This document shows, piece by piece, positions 1-63,251 of a stretch of DNA of 64,000 bases. Every line of letters starts with the position of its first letter. The stretch's first letter is position 1. This stretch comes from Fluviicola sp. GTDB lineage: Bacteria; Bacteroidota; Bacteroidia; Flavobacteriales_D; Crocinitomicaceae. The notes under the pieces are model-generated. The model saw nothing but the letters and a program-made list of their open reading frames with translations, ran no database searches and was not told where the DNA came from. Location of the stretch: the NCBI GenBank assembly GCA_002734065.2, contig NVXU02000044.1, positions 1,678-65,677 on the forward strand, written 5' to 3'. The translations under genes were made by a program, and so were the position numbers.

Positions 1-2
1 GG

Positions 3-815: not shown

Positions 816-818
816 GGA

Positions 819-1820: not shown

Positions 1821-1879
1821 AATCTTATTTCTACGCTTCACATTCTTCAATCTTCAAATCTTTCAACTATCTTCGTCCT

Positions 1880-2502: not shown

Positions 2503-2514
2503 GCCCCTACTGTA

Positions 2515-3072
2515 TTATTTCTTCCTCCACTTTTTCAAAATACGTTTGCCTGTTTTTTTTCTGAATTTCTTCAAAACAGTTTCTCTGTCACCAACATTTC
2601 CGCATTTTACCATGTCTGTATAGACAAATTCACCATTTCGGTAGAATTTGAATTCAAAACTAATAGAAACGATGTCTTGACGGTATAAATCGAAGAGTCC
2701 ACCAACAGAAAGTGCTGCCGCAAGGTTTTCTCGGCCTTCGGTTTTTTTGAAGCGTCTGTCGTAACCTCTAACGGAAACCAAGCAGTAAGTGTCAATTCCT
2801 TTGGTTTTCATGATTTCTGCGATAGAATCTGAAGCCAAAATTTTTGAATCTTCGCCAAATTTCATATAATTCAAAGACGGCTCGGCTTTGATGCCACTTG
2901 CCACCAATAATTGCGTCAAATTTATCTCTAAAGAGTACCTGTCGTCAGGATTGTCTAATTGTGCAACGACCAACGCGTTGGTCAAATTCAATTTTTCCTT
3001 CTTTTGCTTCTTCTGAGAGAAAGAAGTACTTGCAATGAGTAAAACGGACAATAAAACGATAAAATTCTTCAT
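2515..3072 (-). CDS. secreted hypothetical protein (signal peptide, Lys-rich C-terminus)
   Basis: MKNFIVLLSVLLIASTSFSQ signal peptide; no recognisable family. Confidence 0.6.
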   Translation of the reverse strand: MKNFIVLLSVLLIASTSFSQKKQKKEKLNLTNALVVAQLDNPDDRYSLEINLTQLLVASGIKAEPSLNYMKFGEDSKILASDSIAEIMKTKGIDTYCLVSVRGYDRRFKKTEGRENLAAALSVGGLFDLYRQDIVSISFEFKFYRNGEFVYTDMVKCGNVGDRETVLKKFRKKTGKRILKKWRKK

Positions 3073-3075
3073 AAT

Positions 3076-4026: not shown

Positions 4027-4118
4027 TTATGCTAAAATAGAGAGTAAAGATAAACTTCACGATTGAAAAACATCAAAAATTAGGTTTTTTTAGGTAAAAA
4101 TGTGAATAAATCGGATAG

Positions 4119-5108
4119 ATGCTTTTTTTACCCAATCCGATATTGTATATTTGTGGGGTGTGGGAAATTGATGTGACATATAGAGAAGAATTAAGCACCA
4201 CCTTTGAGCGCTTACAAGACAAACTTGCCGTTTTAAACAAGGCAAGACCCTTGTCCCAATCCGCTTTGTCCAAAATCAAGGAAGTTCTGCAGATAGAATG
4301 GACATACAACTCCAACAGCATCGAAGGAAACACCTTAAACCTGAGAGAAACGCAAATGGTTTTGCAAGAAGGAATCACCATCAAAGGGAAATCTTTACGC
4401 GAGCATTTTGAGGCAAAGAATCACGAAACAGCCATTCATTATCTAACGACCCTTGTCCATAAAAACTACATTTTATCCTGCCATGATATTCTATCTTTGC
4501 ATGGCCTTGTACTGCGTTCTATAGAAGACGAATTTGCAGGTCGCATTAGAAATGCTGGTGTACGAATCTCTGGCGCCAACTTCACGCCGCCCAATGCATA
4601 TAGAGCCTCTGAATTACTAAACGAGCTGATTTCGTTTACCAATAACAATCCTTTGTGTCTAAACGAAATAGAATTAGCCACCGTTTTTCATCACAAGATG
4701 GTTTGGATACACCCCTTTTTTGATGGCAATGGTCGCACCGTTCGTTTGGCCATGAATTTATTGCTCATGCGTCACGGTTATCCCCCTGCCATTATTCTAA
4801 AAACAGATAGAAAAAAATATTACGAAGCCCTAAATCAAGCAAACAAAGGTAACTACCATAAATTGATGTTGCTCATGTGTCAGGCGGTAGAGCGTTCGTT
4901 AAACATCTACCTAACAGCTCTCCCAGAAAGAGATATTGACTACAAAAGTATCACCCAAATTGTGCGTGAGCCAAGCGTTCCTTACGGGCAAGAATATGTC
5001 AGTTTATTGGCAAGAACAGGCAAAATTGATGCGCACAAAGAAGGTAGAAATTGGGTAACCACTAAAAAAGCGATTGAAGATTACATCCTCGAAAAAAAAA
5101 CGAACTAA
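4119..5108 (+). CDS. Fic-family protein (class II, with N-terminal inhibitory helix motif)
   Basis: Fic core HPFFDGNGRTVR (HxFx[DE]GNGRxxR); upstream SNSIEG matches [ST]xxxE[GN]; true start uncertain (in-frame GTG candidates just after 4150). Confidence 0.88.
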   Translation: MLFLPNPILYICGVWEIDVTYREELSTTFERLQDKLAVLNKARPLSQSALSKIKEVLQIEWTYNSNSIEGNTLNLRETQMVLQEGITIKGKSLREHFEAKNHETAIHYLTTLVHKNYILSCHDILSLHGLVLRSIEDEFAGRIRNAGVRISGANFTPPNAYRASELLNELISFTNNNPLCLNEIELATVFHHKMVWIHPFFDGNGRTVRLAMNLLLMRHGYPPAIILKTDRKKYYEALNQANKGNYHKLMLLMCQAVERSLNIYLTALPERDIDYKSITQIVREPSVPYGQEYVSLLARTGKIDAHKEGRNWVTTKKAIEDYILEKKTN

Positions 5109-5113
5109 ATTAC

Positions 5114-5776
5114 TTATTTCAAGAATAATCCAGCGTATTTTAAGTCAGACTGATTTGTGATTTTGATGTTTTCGATATTTCCCTCCACCGTTTTGATTTT
5201 GTATCCTGCCTCTTCCACAAGACTTGCGTCGTCCGTAATCCCTTTGTGGTACTGCTGTTCGTAAGCCGCTGTGATTACCTCTTTCTTAAAGCACTGAGGA
5301 GTTTGCACCAATAAATAGTCGGTTCGGTCCACGGCTTTGGTTGTTTTTTCATTCTTCATTCTCATAGAATCGACAACGGCAATAACTGGAATTACTGCAT
5401 CGTGTTTATGAAGAACTTTCACGCAGTTTTTCATAGTGTCGTGACTAACCAACGGCCTTACACCGTCATGAATAGAAATATAATCTCCGTAACAATATTC
5501 TAACGCGTTTTTTATGGAGTGGAACCGTTCTTTGCCCCCGGCAACAACTCGGTGCGGAATTTTGAAATTGTGATCCGCAATCAAAGCTTCCCAATATTCT
5601 CTCCATTCTTCGGGCAGTGTTATGACAATTTGCACTTTTGGGTCAAAATGGTAGAACTTCTCAATGGTATGCATCAACAAAGGCTTGTCATTAATGGCAA
5701 TGAATTGCTTCGGAAGAGAAGACCCCATTCTTTTGCCAATGCCGCCTGCTGTTATGATGATGCTGTATTTGCTCAT
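5114..5776 (-). CDS. ispD: 2-C-methyl-D-erythritol 4-phosphate cytidylyltransferase
   Basis: IITAGGIGKRMGSSLPKQF N-terminal motif, 220 aa. Confidence 0.92.
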   Translation of the reverse strand: MSKYSIIITAGGIGKRMGSSLPKQFIAINDKPLLMHTIEKFYHFDPKVQIVITLPEEWREYWEALIADHNFKIPHRVVAGGKERFHSIKNALEYCYGDYISIHDGVRPLVSHDTMKNCVKVLHKHDAVIPVIAVVDSMRMKNEKTTKAVDRTDYLLVQTPQCFKKEVITAAYEQQYHKGITDDASLVEEAGYKIKTVEGNIENIKITNQSDLKYAGLFLK

Positions 5777-5873
5777 AGTGTAAATATACCTAAAAACTCT
5801 TTGATTTTGATATGTCCCACAAAAAAAGGTTGCTCATTTCTGAACAACCTTAAATATCGTATCCGATTCAAAT

Positions 5874-6068
5874 TTACTTCAATTGATTCGGGTCATTTGC
5901 CGCTTTAGCACTTAATTTTTTCTGTGTAAACAACCAGTATAAAAGACCAGAAGCAATTCCAATAATGAAGATGTTATTTAAAATATCACCCATCATATTT
6001 TGTTGTAAAAGTTGAAAAGTCCAATCTAAAAAATCTCCTATTCCCCAAAAAATTCCGCTCCAAGTCAT
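5874..6068 (-). CDS. small membrane protein (hypothetical)
   Basis: 64 aa, one clear TM (IFIIGIASGLLYWLF); only ORF filling this gap; weak evidence. Confidence 0.45.
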   Translation of the reverse strand: MTWSGIFWGIGDFLDWTFQLLQQNMMGDILNNIFIIGIASGLLYWLFTQKKLSAKAANDPNQLK

Positions 6069-6139
6069 AACTGCTGTTGTTTAAATGTGCTACAAATAAA
6101 AGCATTTTTTAGAATTAAAACAATGATTTGAATGAATTC

Positions 6140-6922
6140 TTAGTCTGCCGGCTCTAAACCATCGACTATTTGCGTTAATTCTATGAATTGGTCCACAGAA
6201 AGTGTTTCTGGTCGCAGCGCCATAAAAGGGTGATCTACCTTGTTGCCTTTTAGCAACGCTTTTATGGAATTCCGTATCGTTTTTCTTCGTTGATTAAAGC
6301 TCGTTTTTACTACTTGCTTGAACAAAACCTCATCGCAAGGGAGTTTTTCTCTACTGTTTCTTGTGCAGCGAATTACACCTGATTTTACCTTTGGTGGTGG
6401 GTCAAAAACGTGTTCATCTACTGTGAAACAATACTCAATGTCGTAATATGCCTGCATAAACACACTAAGAATACCGTATTGTTTTGTTCCGGGTTTTTCG
6501 GCAATTCTCCAAGCCACTTCTCGCTGAAACATGCCCATAATTTCAGGAATTTGGTTGCGGTGTTCCAGGCATTTGAATAAAATTTGCGAAGAAATGTTGT
6601 AAGGAAAGTTACCGACCACGGCAAACTTTTCTTTGCCCATAATTTCAGGTAAATCTGCCTTTAAAAAATCGGCTTCTATGATTTTATCCTGCAAAACTGG
6701 AAAGTTTTTTTGCAAAAAGGCAATGCTTTCTGTGTCAACCTCCATCACCCAGACATCCTGCTCTTTTTCTAGTAAAAACTCCGTCAAAGCACCCATTCCC
6801 GGGCCAATTTCTAAGACTTTTTTACATCCTTGATGTTGCTTAAATTGGTCCGCGATACGCTGACAGACTCCTTTATCGGTTAAAAAATGCTGTCCGAGGT
6901 GTTTTTTTGCTTTTACACTCAT
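6140..6922 (-). CDS. rsmA: 16S rRNA (adenine1518/1519-N6)-dimethyltransferase
   Basis: KKHLGQHFL start, SAM motif LEIGPGMGALT, GNFPYNISS motif. Confidence 0.93.
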   Translation of the reverse strand: MSVKAKKHLGQHFLTDKGVCQRIADQFKQHQGCKKVLEIGPGMGALTEFLLEKEQDVWVMEVDTESIAFLQKNFPVLQDKIIEADFLKADLPEIMGKEKFAVVGNFPYNISSQILFKCLEHRNQIPEIMGMFQREVAWRIAEKPGTKQYGILSVFMQAYYDIEYCFTVDEHVFDPPPKVKSGVIRCTRNSREKLPCDEVLFKQVVKTSFNQRRKTIRNSIKALLKGNKVDHPFMALRPETLSVDQFIELTQIVDGLEPAD

Positions 6923-49610: not shown

Positions 49611-50906
49611 TTATTGAATCGCTTTCTCTAAACACACTCCAAAACGGTAACAATCCTCGTAAGAATTATACAGCGGTGCCGGAGCTATTCTGATAACATT
49701 GGGTTCTCTCCAATCTGCAATCACTCCTTGCTTTGTCAATGCGTCAAACAATGCTTTTCCTTGTCCATGCGCAAGAATTGATAATTGTGCCCCTCGTTTT
49801 GTTTTGTCTTTTGGCGTTATAATTTCAAAGGTGCATCTGTCCGAATTCTTTGCAGAAATATCTTCAATCACAAACTCCAAAAATGCTGTCATTTGATCTC
49901 TTTTCTCTCCAATTCTATCCATTCCCGCTTCTTCAAAAATATCTAAGGATGCTAAATGCGCTGCCATTCCCAAAACGGGAGCGTTGCTTAATTGCCAACC
50001 TTCTGCTCCTCGCATCGGGTTAAAACCGGGCTCCATCTGGAAGCGAGTTTCTTTGTCATAACCCCACCAACCTGCTAAACGAGGCAATTCTGGCTTATAA
50101 GCGTGTCTTTCATGCACAAACATACCCGAAACGCCTCCTGGAGAAGAATTTAAGTACTTATAACTGCACCAAGCGGCAAAATCTACCCCCCAATCGTGCA
50201 ATTTAAGGTTAATGTTTCCTGCGGCATGCGCTAAATCAAACCCAACCTTTGCTCCGACTTTATGTCCCGCGTCTGTGATTGATTTCATGTTAAACAACTG
50301 CCCTGTATAATAATTTACACCGCCAATCATGATCATTGCGAGTTCGTCCCCAAGCTCTGCAATTTTTGCCAAAATATCTTCTTCTCTAATTAAATGTTCT
50401 CCTTCTCGTGGGGCAATTTCAACAAGATTTTCTTCTAAATTCAATCCGTGCAATTTCACTTGCGACTCCAATGCGTATTGGTCACTCGGAAAAGCTTTTG
50501 CTTCACAAATTATCTTCGTTCTCTTGCCTTTTGGTTCGTAGAATGAAATCATCAACAAGTGTAAATTGGTCGTTAGTGAATGCGTTACAACCACTTCTTC
50601 AGGATTTGCTCCAACGACATTAGCCACCTTTTGGGTTAAGAATTCGTGGTAAGAAAACCATGGTTTTTCTGCCAAAAAATGTCCTTCTACTCCAAATTTT
50701 GCCCAAGCATCTAGTTCTTCTTTGATATACTTCTCAACTGATTTTGGTTGCAAACCTAAAGAGTTCCCTGTAAAGTAAACCACTTCATTCTCCGTAAAAG
50801 TTGGAAGATAAAACCGTTCTCTGAAAGACCTTAGCGGGTCGTTTGCATCTAATTCTCTTGCAAATGCTTGAGAATTCATAAATGTTGTTGCTGTTAGCTC
50901 GTTCAT
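49611..50906 (-). CDS. kynU: kynureninase
   Basis: 431 aa PLP enzyme; CSYKYLNSSPG lysine region and overall KynU-like sequence. Confidence 0.92.
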   Translation of the reverse strand: MNELTATTFMNSQAFARELDANDPLRSFRERFYLPTFTENEVVYFTGNSLGLQPKSVEKYIKEELDAWAKFGVEGHFLAEKPWFSYHEFLTQKVANVVGANPEEVVVTHSLTTNLHLLMISFYEPKGKRTKIICEAKAFPSDQYALESQVKLHGLNLEENLVEIAPREGEHLIREEDILAKIAELGDELAMIMIGGVNYYTGQLFNMKSITDAGHKVGAKVGFDLAHAAGNINLKLHDWGVDFAAWCSYKYLNSSPGGVSGMFVHERHAYKPELPRLAGWWGYDKETRFQMEPGFNPMRGAEGWQLSNAPVLGMAAHLASLDIFEEAGMDRIGEKRDQMTAFLEFVIEDISAKNSDRCTFEIITPKDKTKRGAQLSILAHGQGKALFDALTKQGVIADWREPNVIRIAPAPLYNSYEDCYRFGVCLEKAIQ

Positions 50907-50999: not shown

Positions 51000-51015
51000 A
51001 ATCAAAATCAATCTT

Positions 51016-52314
51016 ATGTCAAAAATCAATCGGTCAAACTCAGAAAATTTATTCAAAACGGCAAAAACCTACTTCCCAGGTGGGGTAAATTCTCCAGTAC
51101 GTGCTTTTAAGTCAGTAGAAGGCGCTCCAATCTTCATGAAAAAAGGAAACGGTTGCCATATTTACGATGAAGACAACAATAAATACATTGATTTTTGCTG
51201 TAGTTGGGGTCCGCTTATTTTAGGGCACAACAACAAGAGTGTTTATGACGGCATTGTGGATGCTTTGAAAAATGGAGCAAGTTTTGGAACGCCAACCGTA
51301 TTAGAAAACGAATTGGGAGAATTGATTCTTTCTAAAAACCCTTTCATAGATAAAATACGATTTGTCAGTTCTGGAACAGAAGCGGTAATGTCTGCTTTGA
51401 GAATGGCAAGAGGCTTCACAGGCAGAAAAAAAGTATTGAAATTTGAAGGTTGCTACCACGGCCACGTTGATTCAATGTTGGTAAAAGCAGGGTCAGGATT
51501 AGTCACTTTTGGAGAATCTTCAAGTGCCGGTGTTCCCGAAGAATATGCCAACGAAACATTGGTTTTGCCCTTAAATGACATTGATGCGTTGAAGAAATGC
51601 TTTGCAGAACACAAAAACGACATTGCTTGTGCGATAATTGAACCCATTCCCGCAAATAACGGCTTGCTTTTGCAAGATAAATCATTTTTAACTGCACTCC
51701 GAGAAATTTGCACAGAATATGGAGCGTTGTTATTCTTCGATGAAGTTATTTCTGGATTTAGAGTTGGATTTAACGGAGCATCAGAATTATATGGTATCAC
51801 TCCTGACATCATTACCTACGGAAAAATCATTGGCGGTGGTTTACCCGTTGGTGCTTATGGTGCAAGAAATGAAATTATGGCAATGATTTCTCCTGACGGA
51901 CCAGTTTACCAAGCAGGAACATTGTCTGGGAACCCTGTTGCGATGGCTGCTGGAATTGCGCAACTAACGGAATGTGCAAAAGACGGTTTTTACGAAGATC
52001 AAGAAAGAAGAACTAAAAACTTTGTGAACGCAATCAATGCACATGCCAAAGCCAAAGGATACGACTTTGAAATGGTTACCATTGCCTCTATTTTCTGGCT
52101 ATCTTTTGATGGTAAAAAGAAAATTCAAAACGCAGGTCAAATTGATCCTGACATGTCGAAATTTAGCGCGTTATTTTCGGAATTGCTCGACAGAGGTGTT
52201 TATTTAGGACCTAGTGGTTACGAGGTTGGATTTGTTTCACAAGCGCATACGGAAGAGTATTTAGCAGACGCAGCAGATGCTTTTTGTGAGAGTTTGGATG
52301 TCGTTTTAGGCTAG
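51016..52314 (+). CDS. hemL: glutamate-1-semialdehyde 2,1-aminomutase
   Basis: FPGGVNSPVRAF, FDEVISGFR, YGKIIGGGLPVGAYG motifs. Confidence 0.95.
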   Translation: MSKINRSNSENLFKTAKTYFPGGVNSPVRAFKSVEGAPIFMKKGNGCHIYDEDNNKYIDFCCSWGPLILGHNNKSVYDGIVDALKNGASFGTPTVLENELGELILSKNPFIDKIRFVSSGTEAVMSALRMARGFTGRKKVLKFEGCYHGHVDSMLVKAGSGLVTFGESSSAGVPEEYANETLVLPLNDIDALKKCFAEHKNDIACAIIEPIPANNGLLLQDKSFLTALREICTEYGALLFFDEVISGFRVGFNGASELYGITPDIITYGKIIGGGLPVGAYGARNEIMAMISPDGPVYQAGTLSGNPVAMAAGIAQLTECAKDGFYEDQERRTKNFVNAINAHAKAKGYDFEMVTIASIFWLSFDGKKKIQNAGQIDPDMSKFSALFSELLDRGVYLGPSGYEVGFVSQAHTEEYLADAADAFCESLDVVLG

Positions 52315-52324
52315 GCGGGCTCGT

Positions 52325-53839
52325 TTATCGTATAACTTCAATCTGTTTTCTGCTCTTTACAACAAAACAGACAGATTGATGGATATTTAGTTTTTCTTTT
52401 ATCTCCCCTATCTCTATTGGAATAATATTCCTTTCTGCATAGACTATCAACTGCGGGTCTAAAACAACATTTCCCGTTAAATAAATAATCTCATCTGGTT
52501 GTGCTTCTTTTTTAATGAATTTTCCTATTTCATAACTGGTTGCATAATAATCTCCATTTAGAGAATACTGTCCCGGACGATTGATGAAAAAGTAAATTCC
52601 GACAGAAAAAATAACAGTGAAAAATGTTAGTCTGTTTAAAAATGAAATAGATACACTTTTTGAATTCTTTAGCTGGTTATATAAAACACCAACCATTACA
52701 GATAAAAAGAGACCTGCGTACAGAGACACAAAATCATGCCCTGAATAATTCATTAACACGAGGTGAAGAAGAACTATCGGCGCAATTGAAAGCCAACAAA
52801 AAGAGGACAATCCTTTATTCTTCAGACTTGCTATTTTATTGTTTTTCACAAATAGAGTCAAAAAGGTAATTAGCAGCAAAAAAATCGGCAAGTAGGATGT
52901 TGTGTATGCAAAGAGTATTGCTCCTAATTCACTTATTTTTTCACTCCAGAAGTTCGTTTCTCCACTGAGGTTTCCCCGAACAGAAAAGCGATGCAACATC
53001 TGATTAAAATAGGCTTCCGCTCCATTAATTAAACTGTATTGCCAAATAATTAATCCCAAAGATGAAATAACAATCAATGTACTTGTCCCTAAAAGTAACA
53101 GGTAACGGTTGTCTTTTCTCCCATTTGCAATTGAAAATAAAGCGACAGAAAAAGCAAAGAACAAGCCCAGCCATGAAGTGTAAATCATAATAAACAAGCT
53201 TATTGCATATAATAGTAAATGCTTAATTGAGTCCGTTTTGTTTTTAACAACCATGGTTAGAACGATAAACGTGGACCAAATAAAAGGAAGCTGCACTAAA
53301 ATATCACTCATGTATGTGTTGCTTTGAAACCAAAGAACACCGGACGCGAATATGTAAATCACATAGGCAACGAGTCCAGGAACAAAAAGTTGTTCAAACG
53401 GTTTTTTACGGCAGAGTAGGCAAATAATTAGATAAATAAGAAAGGCAGAAAAGAAATTCCCAACCAAATTTAAAGATTGTAAAGCACCAACTTCGGCTTT
53501 AACTCCAGTCACCTTAAAAATAAAATACGGTAAAATATATGCGAGTTGTGGGTGTGAGACATAGTAATAATTTCCCTCACTATCTTTCATGTCTCCAGTT
53601 GTACTGGCATACACGTTAATGTTCTTGTTTGCTGCCCCTGAATAATTCATAACAGGATTAAAATGATATTTTGAAGCACCCTCTTTTTGCCAGATTTGCA
53701 ACACCCTTAACGGTATCGCGGTAACAAACTCATGGTGTTTAGAGAGGGGCCTGTTAAGGTTGGGATAACGGACAACCAACGACAAAGCAAAAACCATAAC
53801 CAAAGGCAATATTACTCTAAAGGTGGGTTTAATTCTCAT
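52325..53839 (-). CDS. polytopic membrane protein, GT-C fold (PMT_2/ArnT-like glycosyltransferase) candidate
   Basis: 504 aa, ~12 TM helices; early-loop HHEFVTAIPLRV resembles the HxWxxxT pattern of PMT_2-type enzymes; function is inference. Confidence 0.5.
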   Translation of the reverse strand: MRIKPTFRVILPLVMVFALSLVVRYPNLNRPLSKHHEFVTAIPLRVLQIWQKEGASKYHFNPVMNYSGAANKNINVYASTTGDMKDSEGNYYYVSHPQLAYILPYFIFKVTGVKAEVGALQSLNLVGNFFSAFLIYLIICLLCRKKPFEQLFVPGLVAYVIYIFASGVLWFQSNTYMSDILVQLPFIWSTFIVLTMVVKNKTDSIKHLLLYAISLFIMIYTSWLGLFFAFSVALFSIANGRKDNRYLLLLGTSTLIVISSLGLIIWQYSLINGAEAYFNQMLHRFSVRGNLSGETNFWSEKISELGAILFAYTTSYLPIFLLLITFLTLFVKNNKIASLKNKGLSSFCWLSIAPIVLLHLVLMNYSGHDFVSLYAGLFLSVMVGVLYNQLKNSKSVSISFLNRLTFFTVIFSVGIYFFINRPGQYSLNGDYYATSYEIGKFIKKEAQPDEIIYLTGNVVLDPQLIVYAERNIIPIEIGEIKEKLNIHQSVCFVVKSRKQIEVIR

Positions 53840-53939
53840 TGCCCTACAAAAGTAGTAAAATATCTATCGCCTTTTTACTCTGTCTTTTTGTAAAAAAGTC
53901 AATGGAAATTTTACTCACAATTTTATGTTTTTGAACGTT

Positions 53940-53984
53940 GCTGCAAAGGCTTTCTGTGAGAGTTTGGATGTGGTTTTGGGGTAG
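53940..53984 (+). pseudogene. relic copy of the hemL 3' end (last 14 codons plus stop)
   Basis: GCTGCAAAGGCTTTCTGTGAGAGTTTGGATGTGGTTTTGGGGTAG versus hemL 52270-52314: 38/45 identical. It encodes AAKAFCESLDVVLG* versus AADAFCESLDVVLG*. Confidence 0.7.
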
Positions 53985-54015
53985 GAATTAGCTTTTATTT
54001 TCTACATTAGCCCTT

Positions 54016-54885
54016 ATGAAACATCGTTCACTCTCCTTATTATTAATTTTTTTTAGTTGCACGTCTTTATATTCGCAAAAGAAACCATACAAATACATCT
54101 ACGAAAGTATTGATAGTATTGTTGTAAATCATGGTTATGAGGTTGCAAAAAGAAGAATAAAGGCCTACGAAAAACGATTTACTCTGAACCCTTTAGAAAT
54201 TCAAGATTTTGTTAAAACATCTTTAGATAGTGGGGATATCGGATATTTTAAACGGAAGCTAAAGTTTCTTTCTAGGAACTACGGCTTTATATACACATAC
54301 AAAGATACTATTGATATTCAATGGGCTTACAATTCAAATATCAAGAAGAAAATTTATGATAACGATCTTGTAGATTGGGCTGTCAAAATGAATAAAAAGA
54401 ATTACCCTAAATGGTTAGCCGAGCATTATAAAGAAGAAACATTTAATCAAAAATTTGCAATCCTGGATGAGAAAGATCAATACTTAAGATGGATATGCTC
54501 TTACTTCACTCCTCTTGACCCCTCCTATTCAGATTCTATTTTAACAAAAGGTGATTACGACAACTTTTTGGAGGTTTTAACCATTTATCAACTAAATGAC
54601 TCTATTATTCCCAACCCTTTTGATAATGGATTAAGTTATCCATCAGGATGGCTAATTATTTGGCATAATTTGAAAGACCCCAATATTATTGATTTAATTT
54701 GGACCCTATTGCTCCCTTACGTTGAAAAAACCTATGCAACCGGCAAGATTGGAAAACATTATTTTGAAGTGTACGATCATTGGCTTAATGAGTTTTTTAA
54801 CGAACAGTATTATGGAACACTTGAGAACGTTCCCATTCGAGACTCTGAACACTTTGAAGAAAGAAAGCTTAAATATCGACTGTAA
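54016..54885 (+). CDS. hypothetical lipoprotein / secreted protein
   Basis: Signal sequence with lipobox-like FFSC; no family recognised. Confidence 0.55.
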   Translation: MKHRSLSLLLIFFSCTSLYSQKKPYKYIYESIDSIVVNHGYEVAKRRIKAYEKRFTLNPLEIQDFVKTSLDSGDIGYFKRKLKFLSRNYGFIYTYKDTIDIQWAYNSNIKKKIYDNDLVDWAVKMNKKNYPKWLAEHYKEETFNQKFAILDEKDQYLRWICSYFTPLDPSYSDSILTKGDYDNFLEVLTIYQLNDSIIPNPFDNGLSYPSGWLIIWHNLKDPNIIDLIWTLLLPYVEKTYATGKIGKHYFEVYDHWLNEFFNEQYYGTLENVPIRDSEHFEERKLKYRL

Positions 54886-54956
54886 TTCATTAAAGAATGA
54901 ATGTCTTTAATTCTACAACTCCTTCCTTTTTACTATATTTATAAAAAACAAAATCA

Positions 54957-55502
54957 ATGACTATTCTATTCATCATACTCGGAATTGCCGCAGTAATCGG
55001 GTTTTTTCTTTGGACAATTTACAACCGACTTGTTCGCGCGCAGAATGTCGTGGATGAAGCATTCAGTGGAATTGATGTGCAACTAAAAAAACGTTTTACA
55101 CTCATTCCTCAGCTTGTGGATGTTACAAAAGCATACAACAAGCACGAGTCTAATATGCTAGAGCGCATCGTAAAATTAAGAAGCGGCGCGAGTTTGCAAG
55201 AAACTGCAGATAACGACCAAAAAGTGACGAGCACCTTGAATCTTTTAAAAATAACGGTGGAAGATTACCCAGAATTAAAAGCAAATACGCAGTTTTTAAA
55301 ACTTATGGACAACCTTTCTGCTGTCGAAAATGATTTGTCAATGGCGAGAAGGTATTACAACGGAGCGACGAGAGATTACAACACTAAAATTGAAGTTTTC
55401 CCCGCTGTTCTTATTGCCGGTAAGTTTGGCTTTAAAGAAGTAGACTTTTACGAAATAAATGAGGATGAAAAGGCTGTTCCTGAGATTAATTTAAACGACT
55501 AA
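54957..55502 (+). CDS. lemA: LemA-family protein
   Basis: N-terminal TM then IYNRLV ... YPELKAN ... RRYYNG motifs. Confidence 0.9.
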   Translation: MTILFIILGIAAVIGFFLWTIYNRLVRAQNVVDEAFSGIDVQLKKRFTLIPQLVDVTKAYNKHESNMLERIVKLRSGASLQETADNDQKVTSTLNLLKITVEDYPELKANTQFLKLMDNLSAVENDLSMARRYYNGATRDYNTKIEVFPAVLIAGKFGFKEVDFYEINEDEKAVPEINLND

Positions 55503-55504
55503 AC

Positions 55505-57238
55505 ATGAAAATATTCATTTCCTTCTTTTTCCTTTTTTGCCTCTTTTTTACCTCTTTTTCGCAAAATTCGATTGAAAACAGCGAAAAAGTGCTCAATTTT
55601 CACAGTAATATCGAAATTCTAGCCAACAACCATGTTCGAGTAAGCGAAACAATAAAGGTGGTTGTAAAGGGCATTGTTTTTAAGCGAGGAATCTTTCGGG
55701 AAATTCCACTTTCTTATGATTACAAAGGTGGAAATGTGCACGTTGGTTTTGATCTTCTTTCTGTCAAAAAAGAAGGTGAAGAAGAAAACTACTTTACAAA
55801 AAAAAAAGATAATGGAATCATTATTTACGTTGGCAATGAAGATGTGTTCTTAAAGGAAGGGGTTTACACCTATGAAATCGTTTATGAAGTTTCCGATGTT
55901 CTTCTCTACAATGAAGAATTTGACGAGTTTTATTGGAATGTGAACGGAAATGGATGGGAAGTGCAAATGGACAAACTTTCTGCAACGATTATTTATCCGA
56001 AAGGAGCCGAGTTAATCCAGTATGACGGCTATACTGGGCAATTTGGTGAAAACAACAAAGATTTTGAAACAAAAACCAACGATAATTCCATTACCTACAC
56101 CTTTACTAAAAAGGTTGGTTACAAAGAGGGCTTATCCGTCGCCGTTGCTTGGGAAAAGGGTTTTGTCACCTACCCTACACTTCTTGATAAGCTTTGGTTG
56201 TGGGTTAAAACGTACATCTTATATGTCGTTGGGGCACTCGGACTTTTTCTTAATCTTATTTATCTCTACAAAAAATGGAAAAAACACGGCGTTGACCCAA
56301 AACCGGGTGTTATTATTCCCATTTATCATGCACCTGAAGGTTTTTCTCCTGCAGAATGTGCTTATTTAGGTAATTATGGAGAAAAGACGGACACCATGTT
56401 TGGCTCTACACTCATTGGTCTTGTGATGAAAGGTTTTGCAAAGATGAATATGGAGAAAGAAGGACTCATCTTTAAACACAACAAATATACCTTTGACAAG
56501 GTTCTCGAAAAAACGGACACTTCTTCTTTAAACGACATTGAAAAAGCATTTTATGATGCCTTTTTCGGTAAATCAGATCAGGTTATTATCGAAAAGGGGA
56601 AATACAACGCAAATGTTCTAACAACCTCCAAGAGTTTAATCGCAAAGGTTGATAAAAAACAAGACAACATTTACTTTCTCAGAAACAAACAACTTATTGG
56701 AAAACCTTTTCTTTATACTCTAGCAATAGCATTGGTCGGAGGTTCCTTGTTTTTCTTTTACGGCGGAGCCATCCTAATTGTGATTATTGCGGCGGCTATA
56801 TCATTAATTTTTAATGGCTTTTTTATCAAATTAATTGAGCAACCTACCCGTTTAGGACGACAAAAAATGGATGAAATTGAGGGGTTTAAAATGTACATGA
56901 AATACGCTGACAAGCAGCGAATTGAAATGATGAATCCTCCAACGATGAATTTTACACACTTTGAAGAAAACCTTTCCTATGCAATTGCATTGGAGGTTGC
57001 CGAAGAATGGGCTGGTAAATTTGACCCGAAAGAAATTGAACAAGGAATGACACCAATTATGCCCTATTACATAGGTTCTTCGTTTGCTAACTTTACAAGC
57101 ATGGGCGATGACCTGTCCTCTGTCATTTCTTCCGCCTCAACCCCTCCATCAAAAAGTGGTGGTGGAAGCGGCGATTTTTCTGGAGGCGGTGGATTTTCAG
57201 GCGGTGGATTCGGTGGTGGTGGCGGTGGAGGTTGGTAG
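55505..57238 (+). CDS. DUF2207-like membrane protein with Gly-rich C-terminal tail
   Basis: Signal peptide, beta-rich ectodomain, TM helices, tail GGGSGDFSGGGGFSGGGFGGGGGGGW; classic pairing with lemA. Confidence 0.8.
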   Translation: MKIFISFFFLFCLFFTSFSQNSIENSEKVLNFHSNIEILANNHVRVSETIKVVVKGIVFKRGIFREIPLSYDYKGGNVHVGFDLLSVKKEGEEENYFTKKKDNGIIIYVGNEDVFLKEGVYTYEIVYEVSDVLLYNEEFDEFYWNVNGNGWEVQMDKLSATIIYPKGAELIQYDGYTGQFGENNKDFETKTNDNSITYTFTKKVGYKEGLSVAVAWEKGFVTYPTLLDKLWLWVKTYILYVVGALGLFLNLIYLYKKWKKHGVDPKPGVIIPIYHAPEGFSPAECAYLGNYGEKTDTMFGSTLIGLVMKGFAKMNMEKEGLIFKHNKYTFDKVLEKTDTSSLNDIEKAFYDAFFGKSDQVIIEKGKYNANVLTTSKSLIAKVDKKQDNIYFLRNKQLIGKPFLYTLAIALVGGSLFFFYGGAILIVIIAAAISLIFNGFFIKLIEQPTRLGRQKMDEIEGFKMYMKYADKQRIEMMNPPTMNFTHFEENLSYAIALEVAEEWAGKFDPKEIEQGMTPIMPYYIGSSFANFTSMGDDLSSVISSASTPPSKSGGGSGDFSGGGGFSGGGFGGGGGGGW

Positions 57239-57290
57239 CAAAAAAGCCAACCGTTTCCGATTGACTTTTTAACTGCACTCTATGAAAAGT

Positions 57291-57722
57291 CTATTGATGA
57301 ATGGTGTGCTCTTCTTTCACTTCAATCATTTTTGATTCTTGCAAACCCATTTCTTTAATCTTTTTCTCCGCTTCAATCCCAACGAATACTTCTTCCGTTT
57401 TTTCCCCACCTTTTGTCGTGATAATCGTTAGCTTTTTCTTGCCATCAACATCTTCCAATTTAATTTCTTGGCGTTCTTCCTTAAACTTCATGTCGGTACC
57501 GGCTTGTAGTTCTGCTAACTTAGCATCTGCGGCTTCGCCTTCAAAAATCTCTTCGGTAACTTTACCGTCTTCTGTTGTGATAATGGTGAGAGTTTTTTTG
57601 CCGTTTTCCTCCTCCATACGCACTTCTTTCCTAATCTCTTTTTCTTTCTTTTCTTGTGAAAAAGAAGTGTTCGAAACTGCTACCACGAATAGACAGCTTA
57701 AAATTGTTGTTGCTAATTTCAT
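57291..57722 (-). CDS. secreted E/K-rich protein with internal duplication (hypothetical)
   Basis: Signal peptide; two ~50-aa repeats (NGKKTLTIITTEDGKVTEEIFEG / DGKKKLTIITTKGGEKTEEVFVG); the antisense ORF 57301..57771 is Ser/Phe-rich and is read as an artefact. Confidence 0.6.
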   Translation of the reverse strand: MKLATTILSCLFVVAVSNTSFSQEKKEKEIRKEVRMEEENGKKTLTIITTEDGKVTEEIFEGEAADAKLAELQAGTDMKFKEERQEIKLEDVDGKKKLTIITTKGGEKTEEVFVGIEAEKKIKEMGLQESKMIEVKEEHTIHQ

Positions 57723-57825: not shown

Positions 57826-58965
57826 ATGAATCCTTTCAAGTCTAAACTTCCCGACGTTGGCACCACCATATTCTCCGTCATGTCAAAATTGGCGAAAGAA
57901 ACTGGCGCCATTAACTTATCGCAAGGTTTTCCTAACTTCCCTGTTGACCCTCTTTTGGTCGACATCTTAAAAAAGAATGCTGAACAAGACGTGCATCAGT
58001 ACATGCCCATGCCAGGTTCTGTACAATTATTGCTCCAAATTTCAAAACTTATAAAAAACAACTACCAAAGGGCTATTGACGCTGAAAAGGAGCTTTTAGT
58101 CACCGCTGGAGCCACTCAGGCGCTATTCACCGCAATTCTTGCGGTGATTAACACTGGAGATGAGGTAATTATTCTTGATCCAGCCTACGATTGCTACGAA
58201 CCAGCTGTTATTCTCGCTGGGGGAATACCAGTACACGTTCAGTTAGGAGATGATTTCTTACCCGATTGGGACAAAATAGAAGATGCCTTTTCTTCAAAAA
58301 CGAAGATGATTATTACCAACAATCCACACAACCCGTCGGGGAGACTTTGGTCGCAGAAAGATGTTGATTCTTTGGAGTCTCTTTTACTGAAAAATGAAAA
58401 TGTTTTGCTTCTTTCTGATGAAGTTTATGAATTCATTACCTTCGAGAATAAGCATATTTCCATTCATACAAGAGAAAAACTATTAAATAGAACGATCATT
58501 ACCTCATCTTTTGGAAAAACCTTTCACATAACAGGTTGGAAAATGGGCTATTTGGTAGCGCCAGAAGAGTTGATGATAGAAATTAAAAAAGTGCATCAAT
58601 TCAATGTTTTTAGCGTCAATAGCGTTGCCCAGTCTTGCCTGACGGAGTACATTCAAAAAACAGACGTTTCCGTTCTTGGAGAGTTCTATCAAAAGAAAAG
58701 AGACCTCTTTCAATCGTTAATGCATGAGTCGAGGTTTCGTTTGCTTCCTTGTGAGGGTACTTATTTTCAAACGGTAGATTATTCTGCTATTTCGCAAGAG
58801 AATGATGTAAGCTTTTGCAAAGAACTGGCAACAAAACACGGTGTAGCGGCTATTCCAATTTCTGTGTTTAACAAAAACAAACTAGACCTTAAAATAATTC
58901 GTTTTTGCTTTGCCAAAGATGAAGAAACCTTAACTTCTGCAACAGAAAGACTATGCAAGATTTAA
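57826..58965 (+). CDS. class I/II PLP aminotransferase (YbdL / methionine aminotransferase-like)
   Basis: NLSQGFPNF, PHNPSG, SSFGKTFHITGWKMGY (PLP lysine) motifs. Confidence 0.85.
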   Translation: MNPFKSKLPDVGTTIFSVMSKLAKETGAINLSQGFPNFPVDPLLVDILKKNAEQDVHQYMPMPGSVQLLLQISKLIKNNYQRAIDAEKELLVTAGATQALFTAILAVINTGDEVIILDPAYDCYEPAVILAGGIPVHVQLGDDFLPDWDKIEDAFSSKTKMIITNNPHNPSGRLWSQKDVDSLESLLLKNENVLLLSDEVYEFITFENKHISIHTREKLLNRTIITSSFGKTFHITGWKMGYLVAPEELMIEIKKVHQFNVFSVNSVAQSCLTEYIQKTDVSVLGEFYQKKRDLFQSLMHESRFRLLPCEGTYFQTVDYSAISQENDVSFCKELATKHGVAAIPISVFNKNKLDLKIIRFCFAKDEETLTSATERLCKI

Positions 58966-59729
58966 AAGTAAGCCTTGTTCAAGCCAACCAAATTTGGGAA
59001 GACAAAACAGCCAATTTCACAAATTATTTACGCCTTCTAAAGGATGTACAAACTGACTTAATCATTCTCCCAGAAATGTTTAACACCGGTTTCAGCATGA
59101 ATGTAGAAATTCTTGGAGAAGAATGGAGCACCAGTCCTTCTATTCAATGGTTGAAAGAATTAGCGGCGCATCATCAAGCCGCAGTTTATACCTCCCTTAT
59201 AATAAAAGACGAGGATAAATTCTATAATCGAGGTGTTTTTGTTCATCCTTCTGGCAAAATCAACTCCTACGACAAACGAAAATCATTCTCCTTGGCAAAA
59301 GAAGATCTTTTCTTCACAGAAGGAGTAAAAGAAGTAATTGTTGAGTACAAAGAATGGAAAATTCAACTCCAAATCTGCTTTGACTTACGATTTCCTGAAA
59401 TAGTAAGAAATGAATTGGACAATGACAACTTGCCAAAATACGACCTTATTCTCTACATCGCTAATTGGCCTGAGAAAAGAATTTCTCATTGGGACAGCTT
59501 ATTAACAGCAAGAGCGATTGAAAATCAAAGCTATGTGGCGGGAGTGAATAGAATAGGAACAGACGAGAACAACTTAGACTATTGCGGTCATTCAACCGCT
59601 ATTTCTGCTTTAGGTTCAGAATTGTTAAGTAAAAATGATGCTGAAAGTGTAAAAACAATCGTTTTATCTTCAGAAAGTCTCAAAAAAGTAAGAAAAACCC
59701 TTCCTTTTTTGTATAAACGGTTGTTTTGA
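58953..59729 (+). CDS. nitrilase-superfamily amidohydrolase (omega-amidase YafV-like)
   Basis: Catalytic triad context LPEMF (Glu), YDKRK (Lys), QICFDLRFPE (Cys); 13-bp overlap with aminotransferase gene. Confidence 0.82.
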   Translation: MQDLKVSLVQANQIWEDKTANFTNYLRLLKDVQTDLIILPEMFNTGFSMNVEILGEEWSTSPSIQWLKELAAHHQAAVYTSLIIKDEDKFYNRGVFVHPSGKINSYDKRKSFSLAKEDLFFTEGVKEVIVEYKEWKIQLQICFDLRFPEIVRNELDNDNLPKYDLILYIANWPEKRISHWDSLLTARAIENQSYVAGVNRIGTDENNLDYCGHSTAISALGSELLSKNDAESVKTIVLSSESLKKVRKTLPFLYKRLF

Positions 59730-59766
59730 TTGATTAAACGGTACTCCTTTTTTTGATTTTATATCG

Positions 59767-59774
59767 TACTTTTG
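59767..59774 (+). promoter_or_regulatory. candidate -7 promoter box
   Basis: TACTTTTG, 21 nt upstream of ATG 59796. Confidence 0.45.
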
Positions 59775-59795
59775 TCTAAATCAAATCATTATACA

Positions 59796-61688
59796 ATGAA
59801 AAAAATATACTTAAGTGCTTTATTTATTGGATTGTTTGCAAGTGCAGATGCTCAAGTTAAAAAAGAGGCAATGTACAAAATGGGGGTAATAGAGAATGGA
59901 CAATTCGCCCAACCAAACAATCCGATCTATACAACAAAAGACATTGGAGTTGAAATTTGGACAGAAAATTTTGATAACAGCACCAATTGGACATTTAGCA
60001 ATTCTTCAATCAACAACCCTGGTTATACCGGTTCAAATTATGGATGGAATATTGGGTCTACCGTTAATTCTTGGTGGAATGGGTTTAGCGCAGGTATTAA
60101 CTCTACATCAGGTGGTGGTTTTGCAGAAGTTTACAATGGAGATTATTTTGCTCCGACGGTAGATTCTACAAACATTGTCATTTACGAGATGACATCTATT
60201 CCTTTAGATATTCCTAACTTGCCAGGAAACACAGGGAACACAGAAAACGTAATTGTTTCGTTTCAACAGTTCGGAGCATTATTTAACGATGATCAGACTG
60301 TACAAGTAAGTACTGATGGTTCTGTTTGGAATGACATTCATACAAATAATGACAGATTGGTTTATTTAGGAAATAATCCTGATGCTGTTTATGACAACCC
60401 TGAAACAATTCAAGTTAACATTTCTCAATGGGTGGTGGGTAACGCTTCCGCTGTTCAGTTTCGTTTTAAATGGACTTCTAGATTTCAGAGCAGTAATTCT
60501 AAGGCTGCGTGGACAACTTTTGGATGGTTCATTGATGATATGAAAATCTTAACACAACCAACGAATGATGTACAGTTATTATCCTCTTATATTGTTGGTG
60601 CAGGTAATGAAGGTATTGAATACGGGAGAACTCCAACAAACAACTTAGATGCTAGCTGGCTTGTTGGTGGCGTTATCCGTAACTTTGGTTCTATGGATCA
60701 ACCAACAACTGATTTAACAGCGGATTTTGTGTCGTTTTCTTCAAATTCTACAGGTCTAGTGGAAGCAGATTCGACAAGAGTTCTCGAATCAACGGAAACT
60801 CCTACTCTTGCTGTAGGTGTTTACGATGGAACCTATACTGTTGTTGCAGGAACGGATACAGCAAATGGTGTTTCGTTTTTTGACAATACTGGATTAAGAA
60901 GCTTTGAAGTAACTAACAATGAGTACTCCATAGACGGAATTGGAATCTACCCTAACCCTGTGCTAGGATCTATCGGTACTAACTCGTTTACAGGTGCTCA
61001 AGATGGACTTGTTCTTGCTGCAATGTACCACCTTAAGAACACGACAACCGTAAATTCACTTCGAGTAATGCTTGCTTCTGGAACAGTCCCTGGAGGAGAC
61101 ATCACTGCCTCAATTATTGACACCGCAGTTTTGTTAGCTGATGCTACAAGTCCTCTGTATGTTAGTAATCCTATAACACTTACCTCAGCACATGTAGCTG
61201 CTGGTTTTGTTGATCTTCCGTTTGCTAGCGTTCAAGCTAACTTACCCGTGTTAAGTCCTGGAGCTTATTTTGCTGCTGTTGAATTAACGAGTAACTCTGG
61301 ATCAAATACGATTAGCGTTGTTGATGACCAAACAGTTGTTCAGCCTGGAGTTGGTAGTATGATTTTTATTCCTGGGGATCAAACTTATTCTAATGGAACC
61401 GCTATTGGTGTAAGAATGTTAACTGGAGTAGGAACTATTGGTTTAGAAGAGAATTCATTAAATAGTATTAAGGTTTTCCCAAATCCAAGTAAAGGAGTCT
61501 TTACAATAACATTTGATAATAAAACAACTAATTCCATTGCTATCTACGATATGCTTGGTAAGGAAGTTTACTCTAAAACAACTTCTTCTAAACTTACTGT
61601 TGATTTATCAGCAAAAGGAATGGGGGTTTACTTAGTGAAAATTTCTAACGAAAGTGGTGTTATTGTAAAAAGAATTGTTGTTAGATAA
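59796..61688 (+). CDS. secreted protein with T9SS type A C-terminal sorting domain
   Basis: Start moved to MKKIYLSALFIGLFASADAQ signal peptide; C-terminus KVFPNPSKGVFTITF ... GVYLVKISNESGVIVKRIVV resembles TIGR04183. Confidence 0.8.
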   Translation: MKKIYLSALFIGLFASADAQVKKEAMYKMGVIENGQFAQPNNPIYTTKDIGVEIWTENFDNSTNWTFSNSSINNPGYTGSNYGWNIGSTVNSWWNGFSAGINSTSGGGFAEVYNGDYFAPTVDSTNIVIYEMTSIPLDIPNLPGNTGNTENVIVSFQQFGALFNDDQTVQVSTDGSVWNDIHTNNDRLVYLGNNPDAVYDNPETIQVNISQWVVGNASAVQFRFKWTSRFQSSNSKAAWTTFGWFIDDMKILTQPTNDVQLLSSYIVGAGNEGIEYGRTPTNNLDASWLVGGVIRNFGSMDQPTTDLTADFVSFSSNSTGLVEADSTRVLESTETPTLAVGVYDGTYTVVAGTDTANGVSFFDNTGLRSFEVTNNEYSIDGIGIYPNPVLGSIGTNSFTGAQDGLVLAAMYHLKNTTTVNSLRVMLASGTVPGGDITASIIDTAVLLADATSPLYVSNPITLTSAHVAAGFVDLPFASVQANLPVLSPGAYFAAVELTSNSGSNTISVVDDQTVVQPGVGSMIFIPGDQTYSNGTAIGVRMLTGVGTIGLEENSLNSIKVFPNPSKGVFTITFDNKTTNSIAIYDMLGKEVYSKTTSSKLTVDLSAKGMGVYLVKISNESGVIVKRIVVR

Positions 61689-61738
61689 TAACTAATGACT
61701 TTCTGATAATTTTCAGAACACAATACGTATATTTAAAA

Positions 61739-61768
61739 CCGAGAAGCTAATCCTTCTCGGTTTTTTTT
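61739..61768 (+). terminator. rho-independent terminator
   Basis: ccgagaag-ctaatc-cttctcgg followed by TTTTTTTT. Confidence 0.8.
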
Positions 61769-62191
61769 ATGGACTATCTCGAACTTGGTTATCTAGGACT
61801 TTTTTTGGTTTGCTTCTTATCGGCAACCATTCTTCCGTTGGCTTCCGAAGCGGTCGTTTTGGCTTTTCTGTACTACAATTTTGACCCTGTAACAGTGTTA
61901 ATTGTCGCAACAGTTGGTAATACTCTCGGAGGTGTCACCAATTACCTATTAGGGATGCTTGGTAAGACTAAAACACTTAAAAAATACATCCGCAATGAAA
62001 AAAAGTGGGCTAAATTTGAAAAACGGGTGGACAAGTACGGGGTTTGGTTAGGATTAATAACCTGGCTCCCTTTCATCGGCGATCCACTAACCATTGTTCT
62101 CGGCTTTTTTCGAGTAAAATTTATTCCCTTATTCTTTTTAATGCTCCTCGGAAAAGGTTTACGGTACGCCGTCATCGTTTTCTTGTGGTAA
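61769..62191 (+). CDS. YqaA/DedA-related small membrane protein
   Basis: 140 aa, 4 TM, LGYLGLFLVCFLSATILPLASE N-terminus typical of YqaA family. Confidence 0.75.
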   Translation: MDYLELGYLGLFLVCFLSATILPLASEAVVLAFLYYNFDPVTVLIVATVGNTLGGVTNYLLGMLGKTKTLKKYIRNEKKWAKFEKRVDKYGVWLGLITWLPFIGDPLTIVLGFFRVKFIPLFFLMLLGKGLRYAVIVFLW

Positions 62192-62243
62192 AATCATTAC
62201 GGTGTAAATCATTTTACCGATATTTGTGCAAAACAACTCTAAA

Positions 62244-63251
62244 ATGGCAAAATTGACCACCCTTCATGAATTTATCATGAATAAACAAGCAGATTTTCCT
62301 TATGCTTCTGGAGAATTATCACGCTTACTTTCTGACATTGCAATCGCATCAAAAGTAGTGAGTAATGACGTTCGTAGAGCTGGACTGATGGATGATATTC
62401 TCGGTGCTCAAGGAAATACAAATGTACAGGGTGAAGAACAACAAAAATTAGATGTCATTGCCGATAATGCTTTTATTTCCATCTTTAAAACCGGTGGGGA
62501 AGTGTGTGGAATTGCTTCAGAAGAGAATGATGAGTTCATGCCTTTCGAAAGTGAATTTTCGCAATCAGGAAAATACGTTGTTTTATTTGATCCATTAGAC
62601 GGTTCTTCCAACATTGATGTGAACGTTTCTATCGGAACAATTTTCTCCATTTATAGAAGAGAAAGTCCAAAAGGAACTCCTGCAACCAAAGAAGATATGT
62701 TGCAGTCTGGCGACAACCAAATTGCAGCAGGTTATGTTCTCTACGGTTCATCGACAATGATGGTTTACACCACGGGGAAAGGTGTTAACGGCTTTACTTT
62801 AGATCCGTATATCGGAGAATTTTGCCTTTCTCACCCCAATATGAAAATGCCTGAAACTGGTCGTATGTATGCCATGAATGAAGGCAACATCAATATTTGT
62901 GACCCCGGAATTAAAGAATACATCGAAACTTATTGCCAACAAACACAACCTGGTCAACCGAGACCATATTCAGGAAGATACATCGGGTCTTTGGTGGCTG
63001 ATTTTCACAGAAACTTAATCAAAGGAGGTATTTATATCTACCCATCTACCACTGTTGATCCAGAAGGGAGGTTGCGATTGTTATACGAGTGCAACCCTTT
63101 AGCATACATTGCTGAGCAAGCAGGAGGCCTTGCCACAACTGGTCATGAAAGAGTGATGGGAATCAAGCCAACGGAATTACATGAGCGTGTGCCGTTTTTT
63201 ATTGGTTCTAAAACAATGGTTGAACAAGCGATGAACTGCTTGAAAAAATAG
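62244..63251 (+). CDS. fbp: class 1 fructose-1,6-bisphosphatase
   Basis: DPLDGSSN metal-binding motif and GGIYIYP motif; ATG 62244 preferred over upstream GTG 62226. Confidence 0.95.

Follow-up and report, generated by a model that had tools for sequence, protein, structure and literature searches.

Integrase-mediated islands insert in the 3′ end of a gene, supply it with a surrogate end, and leave attL and attR repeats. In experiments at lacZ of E. coli, single crossovers of circular molecules duplicated part of the gene-end homology in most integrants, and homology-facilitated illegitimate recombination (HFIR) has been described as well (PMC3240628). Successive insertions are likewise known to leave orphaned 3′ gene ends, for which HFIR is the usual explanation at Rhs and type VI secretion system (T6SS) loci (PMC5361080, and the HFIR work cited within it: de Vries & Wackernagel 2002, Prudhomme et al. 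2002, Meier & Wackernagel 2003). Here we describe a repeated end of hemL, the gene for glutamate-1-semialdehyde 2,1-aminomutase, in a 64,000-nucleotide stretch of DNA from Fluviicola sp. (GenBank assembly GCA_002734065.2, contig NVXU02000044.1, positions 1,678 to 65,677 of the forward strand; hereafter the window, in whose own numbering coordinates are given unless a relative's locus is named). The resident hemL (51016-52314, plus strand) is intact; its last codons, which we call copy A, recur downstream as an orphan, copy B, on the far side of a minus-strand gene for a 504-aa polytopic membrane protein. We conclude that copy B is most likely an ordinary recombination scar, neither a mobile element nor a new mechanism or system, and that the feature is a further instance of a known phenomenon: the duplicated or orphaned gene end that marks a homology-anchored insertion at a hot spot.

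The locus resembles the Campbell-type single crossover at lacZ (PMC3240628) in that an insert lies between direct duplications of gene-end homology, the gene is left intact, no dedicated recombinase is needed, and reciprocal hybrid copies are expected. It differs in that the lacZ duplications were 109-950 bp long and identical, whereas those at hemL are 76-85% identical over about 54 nt, with perfect identity over a core of 17 nt, and in that the circular intermediate is one that we infer. The orphan ends ascribed to HFIR in Rhs, contact-dependent inhibition (CDI), and T6SS effector loci (PMC5361080) share with the hemL locus a single homologous anchor, a non-homologous junction in the 3′ part of the gene, a dead 3′ fragment displaced downstream, and insertions that recur at one site. 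Those loci, however, have selectable variable toxin tips with immunity genes, and their orphans are reusable; here the gene encodes a housekeeping enzyme and the orphan, at 17 codons, has no plausible reuse.

The repeated hemL end and the origin of its copies

The predicted product of the resident gene (432 aa) scored 548.8 bits against TIGR00713 over residues 9-428, above the equivalog cut-off of 527.3, and also matched Pfam Aminotran_3; by this profile evidence the gene is assigned as hemL. Copy A comprises its last 17 codons, the stop codon, and one further nucleotide (52261-52315, plus strand), and reads LADAADAFCESLDVVLG up to the stop. A direct repeat of 46 nt connects the final part of copy A (52270-52315) with 53940-53985, at an offset of 1670 nt and with 39 of 46 positions identical (85%). 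This is by far the longest repeat within 50.5-55.5 kb. The next-best ungapped match to the hemL end in the window, on either strand, reached 26/46, and the best match in 200 shuffled windows 29/46. Within the repeat, a 17-nt core, TGTGAGAGTTTGGATGT, is identical in both copies (52285-52301 and 53955-53971, plus strand in each case) and forms a candidate crossover zone; it occurs nowhere else in the window, and the search still returned just these two sites when three mismatches were permitted. The seven differences between the copies are five synonymous third-position changes and the replacement of one GAT codon by AAG, with six of the seven at third codon positions. Between the copies lies a minus-strand open reading frame (ORF) of 504 aa (52325-53839) with short flanks and nothing else; it is convergent with hemL, the two stop codons being 10 nt apart. 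The sequence-only reading that preceded this work had reported the recurrence of the hemL end, the seven differences (five synonymous changes plus a D-to-K codon), and the lone minus-strand gene between the copies, and the shuffles, the recount, and the ORF list all agree with it.

Copy B (53931-53985, plus strand) reads LNVAAKAFCESLDVVLG up to its stop and has no gene body upstream. In the allele comparison described below, its homology to hemL reached further upstream than 53940, and by that alignment it probably starts at about 53931 (perhaps 53928). Copy B lies within the 176-nt spacer between the 504-aa ORF and a second acquired gene, of 289 aa (54016-54885, plus strand), at a distance of 31 nt upstream of the latter. 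Six contigs with an identical hemL, from independent ENA, JGI, and Logan assemblies, matched the window at 99.97-100% where they overlapped 51000-57300, and four of the six extend over the complete arrangement, from copy A through the 504-aa gene to copy B. Because independent assemblies agree on the structure, an assembly artefact was ruled out.

To place the two copies, the last 54 nt of hemL were aligned across the alleles of relatives, which are cited below by handles beginning with L or P. Over the first 24 nt, copy A matched L001 and L110 at 20 and 21 positions, respectively, and copy B matched each of them at 15; against L003, L106, and L107 the values were 14-15/24 for copy A and 18-19/24 for copy B, and the copies matched each other at 14/24. 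Over the last 30 nt, agreement with L001 was 28/30 for copy A and 29/30 for copy B. For this part of copy B, L001 was the best match of all alleles, with copy A, L104, and L002 at 26-27/30. Where copy B reads LNVAAKAFCESLDVVLG, the P0131 and L106 alleles read LEVAAKAFCDSLDVVLG and the L003 allele reads LKVAAQAFCESLDAVMG. The lysine of copy B and the valine preceding it are normal residues in the hemL of P0131, P0134, P0135, L106, and L107, and the peptide VAAKAFC is the normal hemL end in P0131, P0134, and P0135. Because alleles of other lineages carry it, the lysine is to be read as the state of an allele and not as a D-to-K mutation.

With L001 as outgroup, the 45 nt shared by the copies place four changes on the branch leading to B and three on the branch leading to A; all four B-branch changes are third-position changes, an outcome with a p of about 0.012 if evolution were neutral. 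Codons for the same amino acid are identical between A and B in 8 of 13 cases, the same level as between the hemL genes of the window and L001 (0.56-0.66). These patterns support the view that A and B diverged while each was part of a functional hemL and that one of them came from a different lineage. The sequence-only reading had proposed as much, and both the third-position bias and the Val and Lys allele states bear it out.

The hemL gene and its left neighbour kynU (49611-50906, minus strand) are equally distant from L001 (dS of 1.156 and 1.152, respectively), and no recombination breakpoint was found inside hemL by sliding identity or by same-codon fraction per quarter, the gene being uniformly L001-like. 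On these grounds the resident hemL, end A included, is judged native. Copy B, or at least its 5′ part, is assigned by the allele comparison to the hemL of another species-level lineage, most likely one within the same Crocinitomicaceae/Fluviicola-like clade. Because copy B carries no frame-breaking or non-allelic changes, its loss of function, and of the gene body, is judged recent relative to the divergence of A from B. The earlier proposal that one of the copies is a displaced native terminus is not supported: A, still part of hemL, is of native type and B of foreign type.

Extent of the acquired DNA and variability of the site

The surroundings of hemL were compared at 80 loci from a scan with one genome per species, about 45 of them in the same Crocinitomicaceae/Fluviicola-like family. 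The closest relatives with readable flanks were L001, L110, and L003 (95%, 92%, and 91% aa identity in hemL). In all three, lemA lies directly downstream of hemL across a gap of 92-217 nt, and the 504-aa gene, the 289-aa gene, and a second hemL end are all missing; L001 and L003 continue from lemA into a DUF2207 gene, and the L110 contig stops within lemA. A blastn alignment of the window with L001 breaks at 52316 and restarts at 54923, with 71 nt of L001 in between. From this gap, and from the adjacency of hemL and lemA in relatives, it follows that the DNA gained is the interval 52317-54922, from hemL to the lemA promoter region, with copy B in mid-interval. By this alignment the acquired stretch measures 2.6 kb and is longer than the 1.67 kb that separates the repeats. 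The comparison shows an ancestral order of hemL-lemA-DUF2207, to which the lineage of the window added the GT-C-fold gene on the minus strand (the 504-aa gene, discussed below), copy B, and the orphan 289-aa gene. The conserved right flank, recognized by Pfam and synteny, occupies 54957-57238 on the plus strand (lemA 54957-55502, DUF2207 55505-57238).

The 1.6 kb between the copies had previously been taken for the insert, and the gene at 54016 for the native neighbour of hemL. Neither idea survives the comparison: relatives lack the whole of 52317-54922, with copy B inside it, and where the membrane gene is absent it is lemA that follows hemL (in L001, L110, and L003), the 289-aa gene being found in no relative. 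The possibilities raised at that time that relatives without the 504-aa gene might nonetheless carry both ends, or that the downstream copy might be a conserved regulatory element, find no support, since each such relative has a single hemL end and copy B occurs in no relative and has no Rfam match. A second hemL end was sought in all 110 loci and found in the window's own population alone; copy B is confined to one clonal population. Contigs with identical hemL were checked for empty-site or intermediate variants, and all were clonal with the same arrangement.

Among the roughly 45 family members, at least a dozen unrelated kinds of gene occupy the position next downstream of hemL, and the kynU-hemL pair is mostly conserved. 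Loci L104-L107 have a hemL-dus arrangement; in L004, L005, L008, and L013, hemL is followed by a convergent 141-aa gene, an aminotransferase gene, and a CN-hydrolase gene, and the backbone of this type is also present in the window, to the right of DUF2207. Judged by gene order, gene gain and rearrangement have a hot spot immediately 3′ of the hemL stop codon.

In the window, a block encoding the aminotransferase, the CN-hydrolase, and Por_Secre_tail, VTT-domain, and FBPase proteins occupies 57826-63251 on the plus strand, to the right of hemL. In L104 (89% hemL identity), the aminotransferase-to-FBPase block is found on the minus strand and on the other side, left of kynU (L104 positions 1-5300). 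The comparison of gene orders implies an inversion of the kynU-hemL block between L104 and the window, with one breakpoint immediately 3′ of hemL; such an inversion would support the hot-spot picture without explaining copy B. In L006 (80% hemL identity), a 38%-identical homologue of the 504-aa gene is located between kynU and hemL (L006 positions 5207-6601), and is a second, independent link of that family with the hemL neighbourhood. No simple inversion was found to relate the L006 arrangement to that of the window.

Identity at fourfold sites between the window and L001 was about 0.5 for kynU, hemL, and lemA, 0.34 (42/123) for DUF2207, and 0.24 (5/21), the saturation level, for the 143-aa gene that follows (window 55505-57722 compared with L001 6047-8255 for this region). 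The low identity of the last two genes reflects either much faster evolution or another recombination boundary between lemA and DUF2207.

Proposed mechanism and its alternatives

It is likely, and we hold this part of our account with good confidence, that copy B is the relic of foreign-allele recombination at the hot spot. Its homology to hemL ends covers about 53931-53985 and its upstream junction is non-homologous, the sequence before it having no significant similarity to hemL or to the flanks of relatives, as befits a recombination scar, and the allele comparison points, through few sites, to a foreign allele rather than to duplication in situ. The explanation as a whole, a non-functional hemL relic left when foreign DNA recombined into a variable site, we hold with moderate confidence. 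A donor relative would already have carried the GT-C gene convergent to its hemL, and the incoming DNA would have docked through the short homology of the hemL ends, with the crossover in or near the 17-nt core. No recombinase would have been involved, and copy B would have no function of its own. The most economical version, a single crossover between a circularized fragment of about 1.67 kb and the chromosome, is offered tentatively, as somewhat less probable than its negation. The circle would have contained the donor hemL tail, 10 nt, the GT-C gene, and the upstream flank of that gene. Such a crossover would duplicate the homologous segment and create two reciprocal hybrids, A with a native left and a donor right part, B with a donor left and a native right part. 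The native left part of A, and the foreign left and L001-like right parts of B, fit this hybrid pattern. HFIR of a linear fragment would be a close alternative. For the 289-aa gene, either a second event at this hot spot is required, or the entire block was put together in a donor and transferred in one piece.

Several observations weigh against this account. No donor or intermediate was found in the collections searched, be it a hemL with either the GT-C gene or the 289-aa gene beside it, or a hemL with an LNVAAK end, and hemL stood next to none of the homologues whose contexts were read (three per cargo gene, a limited sample). A scan of JGI metagenome contigs for hemL ends encoding FCExLDVVLG followed by a stop returned the L002 species alone. 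For RecA-dependent recombination, some 54 nt of homology, of which 17 nt form an unbroken identical core, is a short anchor. Because the acquired interval extends beyond the repeats, one has to assume two or more events, or else a donor of composite make-up. The reading of A and B as hybrids rests on very few sites, and the codon-position statistics on four to seven. The flanks beyond the A and B stop codons showed no significant similarity to the hemL flanks of relatives, and thus cannot tell which copy sits on native DNA. Composition is weakly atypical: GC content is 35.1% in the 504-aa gene and 32.2% in the 289-aa gene (the lowest among 47 window genes), compared with a window gene mean of 38.5% (sd 2.2), and the GC at third codon positions (GC3) and codon usage of both cargo genes are normal. 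A comparison of GC content and codon usage with neighbouring genes had been suggested earlier as a check on the 504-aa gene, and it supports a foreign origin weakly.

The geometry of the locus also suggests a degraded integrase-mediated island, in which the hemL 3′ end served as attB, A and B are attL and attR, and the integrase and most cargo were later deleted. As in such islands, imperfect direct repeats of a gene 3′ end with an identical core (here 17 nt within a 46-nt repeat) bracket foreign DNA; the copies look hybrid, as attL and attR should, and they lie at a hot spot of the family. Unlike such islands, the locus yielded no integrase, excisionase, transposase, or tRNA, either in the insert or among the ORFs scanned between 37.8 and 64 kb, a result that extends the earlier remark that no integrase was visible; plasmid, phage, and IMG/VR searches showed no similarity. 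The supposed element would measure 1.67 kb and carry a single gene, and its repeats do not delimit what relatives lack, the missing interval running about 940 nt past copy B and including the 289-aa gene. Recurrent use of an att site should, moreover, have left second hemL ends among the roughly 45 relatives with other downstream cargo, and none has one. We regard the island explanation as quite unlikely. Duplication of the resident hemL end in situ, as a target-site or tandem duplication at the time of insertion with later neutral decay of copy B, would produce a direct repeat around an inserted gene, but neutral decay is expected at all codon positions, contrary to the third-position bias seen over all seven differences and on the B branch, and the Val and Lys of copy B match real alleles of other lineages. 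A repeat of 46-54 nt at 85% identity is, in addition, unlike a target-site duplication, and neither a transposase nor terminal inverted repeats at the insert ends were found; a transposon or insertion sequence with target-site duplication was rejected on the same observations, and decay in place is highly improbable.

Copy B may instead have been imported together with the 289-aa gene, from a donor with the order hemL′-289-aa gene-lemA′ into a recipient that already had hemL-GT-C gene-lemA. The anchor would then lie at lemA, the left junction at about 53930 would be illegitimate, and copy B would be wholly foreign and never have stood beside a donor GT-C gene. The short distance from copy B to the 289-aa gene, the absence of both from relatives, the foreign type of the copy B 5′ part, and the GC content of the 289-aa gene, the most deviant in the window, all suit this proposal, as does the standing of HFIR as an established mechanism (PMC3240628, PMC5361080). 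On the other hand, no genome was found with the 289-aa family beside hemL, and the three contexts read have a 73-74-aa ORF upstream instead; lemA shows no foreign sign, being closest to L001 with a fourfold-site identity (0.49) resembling that of hemL and kynU; and the near-identity of the last 30 nt of copy B to an L001-type allele is left unexplained. Joint import is on this evidence unlikely, although it deserves more weight than the island. A function for copy B, as promoter or 5′ leader of either the 289-aa or the divergent GT-C gene, or through a 19-aa ORF (ATG at 53925), might be suspected from its intact, in-frame state between two divergent acquired genes and from the unusually stable hairpin beside it. 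Its restriction to one clonal population, with no counterpart in any relative, speaks against this, as do an Rfam scan without a family match for copy B or the hairpin and promoter and terminator scans with sites at chance level; recent origin accounts for the intactness, and we consider a function very improbable. Lastly, the hemL 3′ end might be a recurrent, integrase-free docking site at which small cassettes with a surrogate hemL tail are exchanged by short-homology recombination, a proposal to which we attach very little credence. If it were true, the palindrome described below might aid capture, and the locus would correspond, at a housekeeping gene, to the orphan-tip arrays of Rhs and T6SS loci.

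As the relic of foreign-allele recombination that we favour, the 17-codon tail is clean and datable evidence of a horizontal gain by an uncultured Crocinitomicaceae-like genome, in which DNA of a sister species would have entered by recombination beside hemL. It also marks two orphan genes as recent cargo, an unclassified membrane enzyme with a predicted GT-C fold and a gene apparently torn from a cluster resembling those for ribosomally synthesized and post-translationally modified peptides (RiPPs). For annotation, copy B should not be called a gene, and the locus should be useful in studies of integration hot spots.

Cargo genes and other features

The 504-aa protein matched no Pfam model (E up to 10) and no NCBIfam model (E up to 1), and a profile built from its family (42 homologues) found no PDB sequence at E up to 10. 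Its AlphaFold (AF2) model, however, had a pLDDT of 90.5 and a pTM of 0.90, and in a Foldseek search against PDB the top 24 matches were all GT-C enzymes (STT3, PglB, AglB, ArnT, DPY19, PMT, and AftB), with E-values of 4e-7 to 1e-3 for the first 20 and weaker beyond. Query-normalized TM-scores were 0.46-0.60 for most, at 8-14% identity in the structural alignments. From the modelled structure, the protein is predicted to have a GT-C membrane fold. It shares with GT-C enzymes such as ArnT, PglB/STT3/AglB, DPY19, PMT, and AftB a predicted polytopic architecture, with Foldseek matches to GT-C proteins alone; unlike them, it has SKHHEF as its first-loop motif in place of a recognized DxD or ExD, and no match to a Pfam or NCBIfam model or to a PDB sequence. 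By sequence it matched no curated GT-C family, such as Pfam PMT_2, PMT, or STT3, or NCBIfam ArnT. Residues R30, S33, K34, H35, and E37, right after the first transmembrane segment (TM1), are invariant in the 42 homologues. The label GT-C-like in the sequence-only reading thus stands for the predicted fold, by AF2 and Foldseek, and is not matched by the sequence searches of Pfam, NCBIfam, and PDB.

The family of the 504-aa protein is large in Bacteroidota (260 matches), with several named members from Chitinophagales, and has a WFQxNxYMxD motif at residues 170-179. One homologue, 47% identical, is named 'ArnT family glycosyltransferase' by NCBI. The nearest homologues are at most 58% identical, and in the three nearest contexts that were read the gene is adjoined by a CoA-transferase III (CoA_transf_3) gene, abutting or overlapping in two of them, and never by hemL. 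The 504-aa gene is missing from the hemL locus of all close relatives. The earlier proposal that the membrane gene was acquired is upheld by its absence there, by the distance of its homologues, and by their location beside a CoA-transferase gene elsewhere; the genomic comparison supports acquisition.

The 289-aa gene, an ORF with a lipoprotein-like signal, is absent from the hemL locus of every relative, and its predicted protein has no Pfam or NCBIfam match. Seven homologue clusters were found in 5.8 billion proteins. Three homologue contexts were read (L093 6703-12256, L097 6719-14861, and L101 4923-8568), with homologues 56-71% identical. In all three, the homologue directly follows a peptide of 73-74 aa with a double-glycine leader (..GG[AN]), and a conserved 325-327-aa gene is present, which has MvdD/RimK-type ATP-grasp matches in two of the three; a C39-peptidase ABC exporter occurs in the same two. 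The clusters also include a 61-63-aa ORF and a protein of about 337 aa. Their gene content suggests that the 289-aa family has its home in an as yet undescribed RiPP-type cluster, and the window contains none of the partners. Judged by these contexts, both the 504-aa and the 289-aa genes are orphans away from their usual surroundings.

Repeat search and folding detected an imperfect palindrome, or hairpin, of 67 nt with 23-nt arms at 53852-53918, in the gap that separates copy B from the 504-aa gene start. Its arms are complementary at 19 of 23 positions, and its folding energy is -15.5 kcal/mol (z = -3.9 relative to shuffles). It lies about 10 nt from the non-homologous junction of copy B, and one may speculate that it favoured breakage there; an operator, a leader, or a recombination-prone site are among the possibilities. 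An integron cassette with the palindrome as attC was rejected, given its position 5′ of a gene, the lack of R′ and R″ core motifs, and the lack of an integrase.

Within hemL itself, a minus-strand ORF of 119 aa (51453-51812) is open in L001, L002, and L003 as well (115-119 aa); most likely it is no gene and stays open through constraints on the hemL codons.

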